Source: Nitrososphaerota archaeon
GTDB lineage: Archaea; Thermoproteota; Nitrososphaeria; Conexivisphaerales; UBA164
NCBI GenBank assembly: GCA_023381255.1
Contig: JAMCTX010000022.1
Coordinates: 19,302-83,301, forward strand
DNA length: 64,000 bases
Reading direction: 5' to 3'
The position numbers and the translations under genes are program-made. Each line of letters starts with the position of its first letter. Position 1 is the first letter of the stretch. Shown in pieces: positions 33,760 through 35,907 of this stretch. Under the pieces are notes generated by a model. It did no database searches. It was given only the letters and a program-made list of their open reading frames with translations, and had not been told where the DNA came from.

Positions 33760-35907
33760 ATGAGCTACGACGAACTTGTTAAATTGCGGGAAAATGCTAG
33801 GGCAGACCCCGCTCATAACATATCCTTCTATATGTCGTTCTATGAGCAATGGAGGAAAATTGGCCCCGATAAAATAAAAAGTGCACAAAATATAAACGAA
33901 CTCAACACCTGGCTTACAGGCGAACTAGAAAGGGTCACCGGGGGCCACCATGAAAATTTGAAATTCTACAGTGAACATGGCGCCTACCAGGAGCCTTTAA
34001 AATTATTCGGTACTGACCTGCACCGCATAACCGGTAAAATCAGGAGCATATATGCAGGAGAAATAGCGCATCCGGAATTTAGGCCTGCAAACAGGATTTA
34101 TCTGCCGGGTCCGTTTAGGGCGGAATTTATGGATTACAGCGCGGATGCCGCATTTATAAATTCAGACATAGCGCGTCGCATTAACCTTAAATCTAGTTCA
34201 TATTACATCAAAATAGCCGGTGTTGGGCTGAGGCTGTATTTTTCGCCTGATGTCAGAGGCCCGCTGTGCAGTTCAAATTATGATATATATCCATGTGAAA
34301 AGAAGTCGCAGCTGATAAATCTAGGGAATATAATTCTACCTGCAAAATTGGCAAGGAGAATTGCAGGGTATGGGATTAAAGGGGAAATTCCCAGCACACC
34401 AGATGAGGCTATAGCCTCTGGACTTGAGAACGGAACGCTGCACCCCAACTACGCAATTCCTCAGCCTCCTCCTGACGTTGAAAAACTTAGGATACGCGAC
34501 CTGGAATTCCGGCCATCCCCTGCGGTTTTAACATACCTTGTGAATTCGGGCATGCTTGCATCTTTAAAAAAGGATTCCATAGTTGTTGATGATGAGATTT
34601 TTGGTCCAATACTTCAGGCAGCGCTGGACGGTAAACTGAAAGGCGTGAACATGCCGGACAATCGCATTTGGTCAATTGAAATAATTGAGCAAATGGGCAA
34701 TGGGAAGGACATCAACATCTACCATGGCATCGTGCCAGTCAGGGGGCAGGTAATACCCAGGATTGCCACAAGGTACTGCACCAGATGCCAGAGGATAACC
34801 CCGTTCAGGAGGTGTGAATCGTGCGGATCAAGGACGGTCAAGCTGTACTTTTGCAACAAGTGTGGCAAGCCGATTGTTTCACAGACGTGCCCCACATGTG
34901 GCTCAGCTGCCAGCAGCATGCCGGATAACGACGCAGAACTGTCGGAATCCCTGAGGCTTGCAAGCAAAAAGCTTAATCTGGACATGCGCCTTGACCTGGC
35001 ATTTCCAGATAAATCGGTTGGAGAAATTGAGGACATAAGAAAGGTCATCCTAAGGCGCCGCGCATCTATACTGGCTTCAGAATGCGGGGTAAGCGCATTT
35101 CTTGCCCATGGTGAGGCAGCAAACCTGAATCCTGACGAGATAATAATACCCCATAGGCTAGCGTCTTCCCTGCTTGACGTAGCCAGGTTCATTGATGCGG
35201 AAATTGAAGAAATATACGGGGGAAAGAGGATATTTTCCGAATATTCACCCAAAGAGCTGATAGGCCGCGAACTAATTTTGCTCAACAGGGATTTAAGCGC
35301 CGGCATAAGGTTAAAGGTTAGGGAAATAGGCAGCGAAGTTCTGGTAAATCCAGGGGTGCTGAAAAAGCTGTGTATGGGCCTTAGAAACAATAGCCTATAC
35401 GTTTCCCTTGAAGAGGACGTGATATTAAACTATTCTGGGAAATACTGCGACCCGCCAAGGTACCTTAACATATACGGTGCTGGCTCGAGCAAAACGCTGC
35501 CCAAAATCAGGATCGACTATTCCGCCAAGCAATCCAGAGAAAGCATTGTCGACCTTTCCAAATCTCTTATGCAGCTCATCATATCATTGAAGGATAAGAA
35601 GGTCGCTGTTCCTCAACTGGTAAAAACGCTAACTGCAGTGGAAATCATGTATAACAATCAGGCTCACTCTTGCCCAAAGTGCGGATTGCGTTTTTTGCTT
35701 CCCCCGCTAAGTTACCGGTGCCCCATATGCGGTTCAGAGCTGTCGCCCGAGTTTGACACGGAAATGCTCAATACGATCATCATATCTTTGAGAAATGTTG
35801 CAGATATGCTTGAAAACGATGAAAAAGAAGAAATAGAATTGATTCTGGAAAGGTTCCAGGGCATGTTCAAATCGGACAGCCAGCTGTCGCTCTCTGAATT
35901 TTCATGA
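33760..35907 (+). CDS. 715-aa multi-zinc-ribbon protein. The C-terminal half resembles the PolD large subunit (DP2), but the acidic catalytic motif is degenerate.
   Basis: Four CxxC pairs lie at aa 340-380 and a CPKCG-x12-CPICG ribbon at aa 638-657. The tail ...ILERFQGMFKSDSQLSLSEFS parallels the remembered DP2 C-terminus (FRCxKC..YRRxPLxGxCxxCGG ... SLF...QxSLxDF). LAHGEAANLNPDEIII sits where DP2 has [18 protein letters not shown]. GGTGA lies 5 nt upstream of the ATG. Confidence 0.5.
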   Translation: MSYDELVKLRENARADPAHNISFYMSFYEQWRKIGPDKIKSAQNINELNTWLTGELERVTGGHHENLKFYSEHGAYQEPLKLFGTDLHRITGKIRSIYAGEIAHPEFRPANRIYLPGPFRAEFMDYSADAAFINSDIARRINLKSSSYYIKIAGVGLRLYFSPDVRGPLCSSNYDIYPCEKKSQLINLGNIILPAKLARRIAGYGIKGEIPSTPDEAIASGLENGTLHPNYAIPQPPPDVEKLRIRDLEFRPSPAVLTYLVNSGMLASLKKDSIVVDDEIFGPILQAALDGKLKGVNMPDNRIWSIEIIEQMGNGKDINIYHGIVPVRGQVIPRIATRYCTRCQRITPFRRCESCGSRTVKLYFCNKCGKPIVSQTCPTCGSAASSMPDNDAELSESLRLASKKLNLDMRLDLAFPDKSVGEIEDIRKVILRRRASILASECGVSAFLAHGEAANLNPDEIIIPHRLASSLLDVARFIDAEIEEIYGGKRIFSEYSPKELIGRELILLNRDLSAGIRLKVREIGSEVLVNPGVLKKLCMGLRNNSLYVSLEEDVILNYSGKYCDPPRYLNIYGAGSSKTLPKIRIDYSAKQSRESIVDLSKSLMQLIISLKDKKVAVPQLVKTLTAVEIMYNNQAHSCPKCGLRFLLPPLSYRCPICGSELSPEFDTEMLNTIIISLRNVADMLENDEKEEIELILERFQGMFKSDSQLSLSEFS

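Follow-up and report, generated by a model that had tools for sequence, protein, structure and literature searches.

The gene described here, a complete open reading frame (ORF) of 715 codons and a stop at 33760..35907 (+) of a 64,000-nucleotide stretch of Nitrososphaerota archaeon contig JAMCTX010000022.1 (the window), is shown to be a degenerate ortholog of DP2, the large, catalytic subunit of DNA polymerase D (PolD). Most archaea depend on PolD as their essential replicase, and the CTD/B-subunit modules found in every eukaryotic replicative polymerase descend from the C-terminal domain (CTD) and the DP1 subunit of PolD. The protein is a shortened, catalytically inactive homolog of DP2, which is held under selection and in which the C-terminal PIP-type peptide (cPIP) is the most constrained element; a non-catalytic function of PolD is thereby isolated from the catalytic one. 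Such a dead polymerase could help explain how PolD came to be replaced by PolB in Crenarchaeota, Nitrosocaldus and the eukaryotic ancestor, and why an inactive polymerase module is kept in eukaryotic Pol epsilon. The value of the finding is tempered by the fact that inactive DP2 and DP1 of the same group have been in print since 2020, and by the function proposed below being one that we only infer.

That the 715-aa protein is homologous to PolD DP2 is certain. Matches to Pfam PF24846 (PolC_DP2_cat; 26.2 bits, just above the gathering cut-off of 24.3) and Pfam DZR (double zinc ribbon; 27.8 bits, cut-off 27.3) are accompanied by matches to the NCBIfam DP2 equivalogs at E 1e-22, yet the scores of the latter (78.9, 63.7 and 33.2 bits for PRK04023, PRK14714 and TIGR00354, respectively) lie below the cut-offs of 1269, 1791 and 702, which explains why every public copy of the protein carries the label ‘hypothetical protein’. 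When PDB sequences were searched with phmmer, the DP2 chains of PolD were the sole matches, as three colinear blocks, and a HMMER profile of the protein family delimited below found the PDB DP2 chains 6knb_B and 6hms_B at E about 6e-31. The alignments used were those of the family set, of 18 canonical DP2 sequences and of 42 family and canonical DP2 sequences together. By hhalign, the family aligns with the 18 canonical sequences at a probability of 100% and E 1.5e-53, aa 210-714 falling onto DP2 470-1140 of 1148. The AlphaFold model computed from the 42-sequence alignment reached pLDDT 87 and pTM 0.84, as compared with pLDDT 42 only for an earlier model from 9 close homologs. Foldseek matched the better model to eight PolD DP2 structures (best P. 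abyssi 9f29_B, E 8.8e-33, TM 0.55), followed by the largest subunits of RNA polymerases, which carry DPBBs, and then by the human Pol epsilon CTD (5vbn_B, 7pfo_B). A short annotation that preceded this analysis (the original prediction), which had the coordinates and length of the ORF right, had proposed a likeness to DP2; PF24846, hhalign and Foldseek establish it as genuine homology, far beyond chance. The canonical consensus that it had given is reproduced by the 18-sequence alignment, with the NCDGDED region and ...QxFRCxxCNxxYRRxPLxGxCxxCGGKLxLTV...KQxxLxxF. Its description of the protein as the C-terminal half of DP2 needs to be corrected: homology begins at aa ~210, and the differences from canonical DP2 consist of both internal and N-terminal deletions.

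Set beside canonical DP2 (P. abyssi 6HMS/6T8H/9F29, T. kodakarensis 6KNB), the Zn-I/II ribbons, accessory-1, the DPBB-2 scaffold, clamp-1, Zn-III, the CTD and the C-terminal PIP are colinear, whereas the 715-aa protein is ~400-550 aa shorter, has no detectable KH-like N-terminal domain, carries R/N/L in place of D956/D958/D960, lacks the PHTS motif, the GRPEKAK loop and the Arg-Arg (RR) dock for DP1, has lost ~45 aa ahead of the ELKPQDII position and has a shortened accessory-2.

The catalytic site has been lost entirely. The original prediction had placed a degenerate acidic motif, with two of the three catalytic Asp replaced, at NLNPDEII (aa 455-462; 35122..35145, +). The octapeptide does lie there and the active site is indeed destroyed, but neither the place nor the extent of the loss was correct. 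HMMER, hhalign and MAFFT all put NLNPDEII on the ELKPQDII of canonical DP2 (residues ~867-874 in P. abyssi), a non-catalytic segment at the start of the helix before DPBB-2, and all three set NCDGDED opposite G540-L541-R542-N543-N544-S545-L546. LRNNSL (aa 541-546; 35380..35397, +) therefore occupies the place that the catalytic loop, C-D956-G-D958-E-D960, has in canonical DP2, in the surrounding sequence VNPGVLKKLCMG-LRNNSL-YVSLEEDVILNYS, within a DPBB-2 remnant spanning aa 451-565 (35110..35454, +) in the hhalign, family-profile and MAFFT alignments. With D956 replaced by R542, D958 by N544 and the third Asp, D960, by L546, all three catalytic residues are gone; D956 and D958 are essential according to mutagenesis (PMC4996933). 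No family member keeps the triad, the slot reading LRNNSL, LRNIGF, PKSNMI, FLFNVG, SLDNQA or APSLSV. The scaffold motifs of DPBB-2 (FID.E...Y, LxxDxxLNYS and D553) are retained, and canonical ‘APHTS’ (the PHTS motif) has become ‘NRDLS’. In view of the joint loss of the active-site Asp residues, of the KH-like region, of the basic DPBB-connecting loop and of most of the positive charge of clamp-1, the protein, judged from its sequence, cannot be a PolD-type DNA polymerase.

The zinc ribbons, on the other hand, have kept all 12 of their 12 Cys ligands. The double ribbon Zn-I/Zn-II (aa 340-380; 34777..34899, +), delimited by Pfam DZR and the alignments, holds eight of them, with exactly the spacing that had been read from the translation (C340-x2-C343-x8-C352-x2-C355-x9-C365-x2-C368-x8-C377-x2-C380). 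The terminal ribbon HSCPKCGLRFLLPPLSYRCPICGSEL (C638, C641, C654 and C657; nt 35671-35730), likewise confirmed, is Zn-III and forms, with the clamp-1 helix, the aligned segment aa 596-664 (35545..35751, +). Across the 42 family and canonical sequences C340, C343, C352, C638, C641, C654 and C657 are invariant, and C355, C365, C368 and C377 are conserved in at least 90%; C380 is listed under neither heading, though it does not vary within the family. Most of the basic residues that serve DP1 docking and DNA binding in canonical DP2 (domain names and residue roles of clamp-1 and Zn-III as in PMC6355029) have disappeared: R1122 is replaced by S637, R1131/R1132 by L646/L647 (LL, SL, AL or SV across the family) and K1145 by E660, those retained near Zn-III being K1125, as K640, and K1129, as R644. 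The net charge of clamp-1, Zn-III and CTD taken together is -1.0 in the family as against +8.9 in canonical DP2. The segment comprising Zn-I/II and the connecting loop has a net charge of +6.

Two C-terminal helices of the CTD bundle follow at aa 665-703 (35752..35868, +; helices 667-681 and 686-706 of the model), this bundle being the DP1/B-subunit-binding module of PolD and of the eukaryotic polymerases alpha and epsilon (PMC6355029). The tail ends, as had been noticed from the translation, in ...ILERFQGMFKSDSQLSLSEFS, and its last 12 residues, KSDSQLSLSEFS (aa 704-715; 35869..35904, +), are assigned to a putative cPIP on the basis of motif and alignment. At the level of the motif, canonical KQxxLxxF and the hotspots of P. 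abyssi VISLEEFF both line up with QLSLSEF(S), and the hotspot positions I1259, L1261 and F1264 of the P. abyssi cPIP KKRVISLEEFFS are kept as L709, L711 and F714; in the family, Q708, L711 and E713 are invariant and F714 is nearly so. The P. abyssi peptide binds both PCNA and primase (PMC7101311), and in T. kodakarensis the cPIP is essential for the contact of DP2 with PriL, while DP1 binds PriS and GINS (PMC8096248). The internal PIP (iPIP) loop is absent from the 715-aa protein, which is uninformative because the non-Thermococcales canonical DP2 in the alignment lack it too.

Upstream of the ribbons, aa 206-332 (34375..34755, +) are the homolog of the DP2 central region, namely the insertion in DPBB-1 termed accessory-1, and of the last DPBB-1 strand; in the hhalign block, which begins at aa 210, ‘TPDEAI..LHPNY’ lies under ‘xxEAxxxSKxLxIPLHPKY’ and YHGIVPV under VHVLFPVG. 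The basic DPBB-connecting loop GRPEKAK reads IEQMGNG, ~45 residues before ELKPQDII are deleted and most of accessory-2 is lost. The N-terminal 330 residues had been said to resemble nothing recognizable, which does not hold for aa 210-330, clearly homologous to DP2; for aa 1-210, hhalign finds nothing. Likewise, aa 1-215 show no profile similarity to DP2 1-480 by hhalign (probability 0.3-0.6%), nor is a KH-like domain detectable by hhalign of the N-terminal residues. In the AlphaFold model, aa 1-110 (33760..34089, +) form a family-specific, mostly helical region, whose first helix and ‘A-DP’ motif (aa 13-17) loosely recall the extreme N-terminus of canonical DP2, MAFFT and hhalign placing ‘ENARADP’ under ‘ARxKGxDP’ at a probability under 1%. 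The beta-rich domain that follows (aa 111-205; 34090..34374, +; pLDDT above 90), without the conserved PGK lysine, is possibly a degenerate DPBB-1 barrel, although the beta-rich fold modelled for aa 112-194 may have been induced by the alignment. MAFFT pairs GPFRAEF / P-FRLRF with GGFRLRYGR and NLGNIILP with LGDILI, and hhalign of the same segments gives 0.6% in another register. A by-eye match of ‘GVGLRLYFSPDVRGP’ to ‘GGFRLRYGRxRNTG’ as the DPBB-1 remnant was dropped, given hhalign probabilities of 0.3-0.6% and the preference of MAFFT for GPFRAEF under GGFRLRY.

The gene is kept under purifying selection and is not decaying. Its ratio of nonsynonymous to synonymous substitution rates (dN/dS) is 0.128 against the ortholog of the metagenome-assembled genome (MAG) DRTY3_bin.13 (locus L002) and 0.120 against that of KM4347-05 (locus L001). 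Individual domains range from 0.06 to 0.19 against DRTY3_bin.13, the dead DPBB-2 included, and two short domains, of the kind for which the estimate is noisy, reach 0.27-0.28 against KM4347-05. For DPBB-2, dN/dS is 0.084-0.091. Among the neighbouring genes, the values are 0.03-0.07 for AMP phosphorylase, malate dehydrogenase (MDH), isocitrate dehydrogenase (IDH), aconitase and a Trm5-like gene, and 0.12-0.14 for GrpE and a radical-SAM gene. No segment of the family is better conserved than the cPIP: towards the three distant branches, identity amounts to 58% in the 12-residue tail, 47% in Zn-III, 39% in DPBB-2 and 37% in Zn-I/II, and among close members it reaches 92% in the cPIP.

The family is small. 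An exhaustive profile search of 1.84 billion representatives returned it as five clusters only (P0001, P0009, P0031, P0032 and P0033), and all other matches were to canonical DP2 or to further DP2-like groups of degenerate type; P0031-33, the distant members, were missed by a word-index search seeded with an alignment. Among GTDB species genomes it occurs in five MAGs, of which three are close (DRTY3_bin.13 included), one is an uncultured ‘Nitrososphaerales’ MAG whose homolog is 29% identical, and the last is Thaumarchaeota archaeon UBA164 (L005, contig DAJU01000009.1). The latter encodes a full-length, 685-aa homolog with 32-33% identity over residues 41-714 (tblastn E 8e-91), identical to P0031, which the family profile finds at E 1.7e-106. 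With further copies in metagenomes, the sources amount to a few hot-spring and acid-mine Nitrososphaeria. Intact orthologs extend down to 27% identity, with uninterrupted ORFs of 685-829 aa in all divergent branches. One metagenomic member (L033 719-2705; JABEBW010004041.1) is split by a frameshift into overlapping ORFs of 427 and 290 aa, and P0030, in the same 90% cluster, is a full-length protein of 712 aa; the split is either an assembly error or a strain-level pseudogenisation. Since all members are annotated ‘hypothetical protein’, surveys of replication genes in Nitrososphaeria will score PolD as absent.

The host had been thought to belong to Thermoplasmata, which is wrong. The protein identical to the 715-aa product, with MCL4344641.1 (JRN26_06050) and MDG6927010.1 among its records, is labelled Nitrososphaerota archaeon, its close relatives come from MAGs labelled Conexivisphaerales archaeon, and a 76%-identical, syntenic locus is present in DRTY3_bin.13, which, together with UBA164, has been assigned to family UBA164, order Conexivisphaerales (bioRxiv 10.1101/2025.10.01.679748); the host is, thus, a member of this family within Nitrososphaeria. 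This placement, the full-length homology to the UBA164 protein and the loss of the active site put the 715-aa protein with the inactive DP2 of the UBA160/UBA164 (GCA_002499005-like) group. Indeed, Kazlauskas et al. 2020 (PMC7544198) reported that UBA160/UBA164 have an inactivated DP1 and no active DP2, while calling conclusions premature, and aligned the DP2 homologs of the group, the UBA164 protein included, as inactive, with the active site marked (Supplementary Fig. S16). As the UBA164 ORF is P0031, a family member, the 715-aa protein belongs to the family of that study, and a description, of which the original prediction was not aware, does exist: the family was briefly noted in 2020, and the protein is a new, divergent member of it. 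It comes from another genus-level lineage (closest DRTY3_bin.13, ‘Thermosulfuris’) and shares with the UBA164 protein the family, the order and the loss of the active site, at 33% identity. The earlier report on UBA160/UBA164 describes neither the domains nor selection, conservation of the cPIP or function; the present analysis contributes the anatomy of the domains and shows that the catalytic residues are lost completely and the DNA-binding ones in part, gives evidence of purifying selection and identifies the cPIP as the most constrained element. With an inactive DP1 and the lack of an active DP2 reported for UBA160/UBA164, the protein is probably the sole, degenerate DP2 ortholog of its lineage, and its earlier designation as a paralog is probably wrong.

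What a dead DP2 may be retained for is approached here from two of its features, the high conservation of the cPIP and the retention of the DP1-holding CTD, from which we propose that an architectural role of PolD has been preserved. The protein would be a non-catalytic replisome adaptor, forming with a similarly silent DP1 a DP2'-DP1' module, a reading to which we assign a probability of about one half. DNA synthesis would be carried out by a family-B polymerase, while the module would do an architectural job at the replication fork, tethering primase and/or PCNA to a CMG-like helicase or handing primers over to PolB; the cPIP would contact PCNA/primase, and the CTD (alpha1-Zn-III-alpha2-alpha3) would hold a DP1-like subunit associated with the helicase. 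A wider proposal, which we advance only tentatively and regard as doubtful, is that the UBA164-family Conexivisphaerales at large keep a fully non-catalytic PolD, made of dead DP2 and dead DP1, as an essential organiser that links primase/PCNA to CMG by way of a DP1-GINS contact, PolB being the synthesising enzyme.

Several observations weigh against the adaptor. No DP1-like gene was found in the 64-kb window or in any of 14 family loci (5 from GTDB, 6 from metagenomes and 3 contigs with the exact protein) by DP1 hidden Markov model (HMM) and hhalign searches, and there is no canonical DP2 in the window either. No replication-related genes adjoin the gene, the context being metabolic. The R1131/R1132 dock is lost in the family, whereas other inactive DP2-like groups keep it, so that DP1 binding may be altered or lost; eukaryotic CTD/B-subunit pairs, however, lost the same basic residues and still bind (PMC6355029), and the loss is, therefore, not decisive. 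The binding of PCNA/primase would rest on a short motif, and the gene evolves 2-5 times faster than its metabolic neighbours (76% vs 87-95% amino acid identity).

Some of these observations lend colour to the alternative that the cPIP and the zinc-ribbon scaffold act on their own, in a DP1-independent PCNA/primase accessory such as a PCNA client in repair or a factor that regulates PolB loading or competes with it. It is favoured by the loss of the RR dock, the neutralised charge of clamp-1, the lack of a linked DP1 in the 14 loci and the cPIP as the best-conserved element; but purifying selection acts on the whole CTD helical bundle and Zn-III, eukaryotic pairs bind without these basic residues (PMC6355029) and PMC7544198 reports an inactive DP1 for UBA160/UBA164, which leaves this option unlikely, if well worth bearing in mind. 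A non-replicative, nucleic-acid-binding or regulatory zinc-ribbon protein of DP2 descent, in line with the DNA-binding or regulatory factor of the original prediction, would account for the three zinc ribbons, the +6 charge around Zn-I/II and the metabolic rather than replicative context. It appears decidedly unlikely, because the DNA-contacting basic residues of clamp-1 and of the DPBB-connecting loop are lost and because the strongest constraint falls on the peptide that would bind PCNA/primase, which points to the replisome. A polymerase still active through substitute acidic residues such as E551-E552-D553, although SLEEDV adjoins the former catalytic loop in the close group and D553 is invariant, is hardly credible: D553 is a structural Asp that every DP2 has, distant members do not conserve the EE pair (ALSADV, ALSEDF, ALLADL), which led us to reject E551/E552/D553 as an alternative triad, and the losses extend to the KH-like domain, the PHTS motif, the PGK lysine and the basic residues of the connecting loop. 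Finally, a decaying pseudogene or functionless PolD remnant left by a PolB takeover, as might be suspected from the faster evolution relative to the neighbours, the frameshifted copy in L033 and the identity of only ~33% to a homolog of the same GTDB family, is rejected as highly improbable by dN/dS values of ~0.12 overall (with every domain at or below 0.19 against L002 and 0.28 against L001, short domains being noisy), by the uninterrupted ORFs of all divergent branches and by Cys ligands and a cPIP that are invariant or nearly so throughout.

The replisome-adaptor reading has a counterpart in eukaryotes. In yeast Pol2, the C-terminal half is essential and the catalytic domain is dispensable. 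The C-terminal half of Pol epsilon with Dpb2/POLE2 (Tahirov et al. 2009; 5VBN, 7PFO) resembles the present case in that a dead polymerase module is kept together with a Zn-containing CTD, which binds an inactive DP1-type B-subunit and is matched by the CTD of our model (5vbn_B, 7pfo_B); the loss of the basic clamp-1 residues is also common to eukaryotic CTDs (PMC6355029). At variance with Pol epsilon, the dead module is of the two-barrel (DPBB) and not of the PolB type, it is not fused to an active polymerase, and its part in helicase assembly is one that we infer. Among archaea, the Crenarchaeota and Ca. Nitrosocaldus (PMC5797428) are likewise thermophilic TACK/Nitrososphaeria lineages that have abandoned PolD catalysis and whose genomes PolB must replicate, but both PolD genes are gone there, whereas here the dead large subunit is kept under selection. 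A dead but selected DP2 is possibly an intermediate state on the way to PolD loss, and a non-catalytic PolD would, if true, be an intermediate of the PolD-to-PolB takeover still living among archaea and, in function, a counterpart of non-catalytic Pol epsilon/Dpb2.

Other degenerate DP2-like proteins, namely those of Heimdallarchaeota B3/LC3 and Aenigmarchaeota in PMC7544198 and the sets P0036/P0043/P0094, P0075/P0102, P0034 and P0059 found in our searches, have also lost NCDGDED while keeping zinc ribbons and a C-terminal Q/x-x-L-x-[DE]-F tail, in short (~700-760 aa) or full-length forms. They differ in being separate groups (~20% identity), in keeping the Zn-III RR dock and in their N-terminal regions. 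P0036, P0043, P0094, P0075, P0102, P0034 and P0059 make up at least three further groups with NCDGDED lost or altered (MEGNTD in P0059), in which short forms have 700-765 aa and full-length forms 1060-1146 aa; the dock is kept in P0036, P0043, P0094, P0075, P0034 and P0059, and not in P0102.

With regard to the surroundings of the gene, a candidate archaeal promoter/start region may be read, with low confidence, at 33729..33759 (+) in the 172-bp divergent intergenic spacer, where an A/T box TTTTTTAA at 33729-33736, 24-31 nt upstream of the ATG, and a GGTGA at 33752-33756, ahead of the ORF start, are the candidate promoter and start-region elements. In the window (35956-36885) and in L002, L027 and L028, MDH follows the gene on the same strand after 40-75 bp and is the sole recurrent neighbour; it is not beside the gene in L026, which carries a 60%-identical ortholog, nor in the distant branches L004 and L005. 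An origin from a mobile element is ruled out, since the gene shares with L002 and L028 a syntenic setting of housekeeping genes (AMP phosphorylase, MDH, IDH, aconitase, GrpE-DnaK-DnaJ). A 502-aa ORF at 23778-25286 (+) was considered as a hidden DP1 and rejected, being a polytopic membrane protein without DP1 similarity; it has no Pfam or PDB match and is adjoined by a DDE transposase-like ORF (25448-26413, -).

Elsewhere in the window, a tRNA-Ser(TGA) (15014-15098, +) overlaps the start of a 373-aa ORF (15035-16156) with a weak match to an integrase/MrpR N-terminal core-binding domain (E 0.009), next to which lie unannotated ORFs and, at 18676-19149 (-), a ParB-like nuclease-domain ORF (PHROG E 5.5e-12); the region 15014-19149 may be an element integrated at the tRNA gene. 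At the window edge, an OLD/GajA-like protein with ABC-ATPase and TOPRIM domains (62716-63987, -; Pfam AAA_21 and OLD-like_TOPRIM; PADLOC GajA 1.7e-16, Old 9e-16) and a separate, mad3-like ABC ATPase (60158-60994, +; 2.3e-28) make the ATPases of 60158-63987 candidate defence genes. The content of 137-7619, 27030-28532 and 36905-52769 is of housekeeping type and fits a UBA164-type thermoacidophile, including two LysX paralogs in an amino-acid biosynthesis cluster of LysW/LysX type, a dsr-like sulfite reductase, a copper protein resembling sulfocyanin, the tricarboxylic acid cycle enzymes IDH, aconitase and citrate synthase, with MDH just upstream, and the GrpE-DnaK-DnaJ operon.

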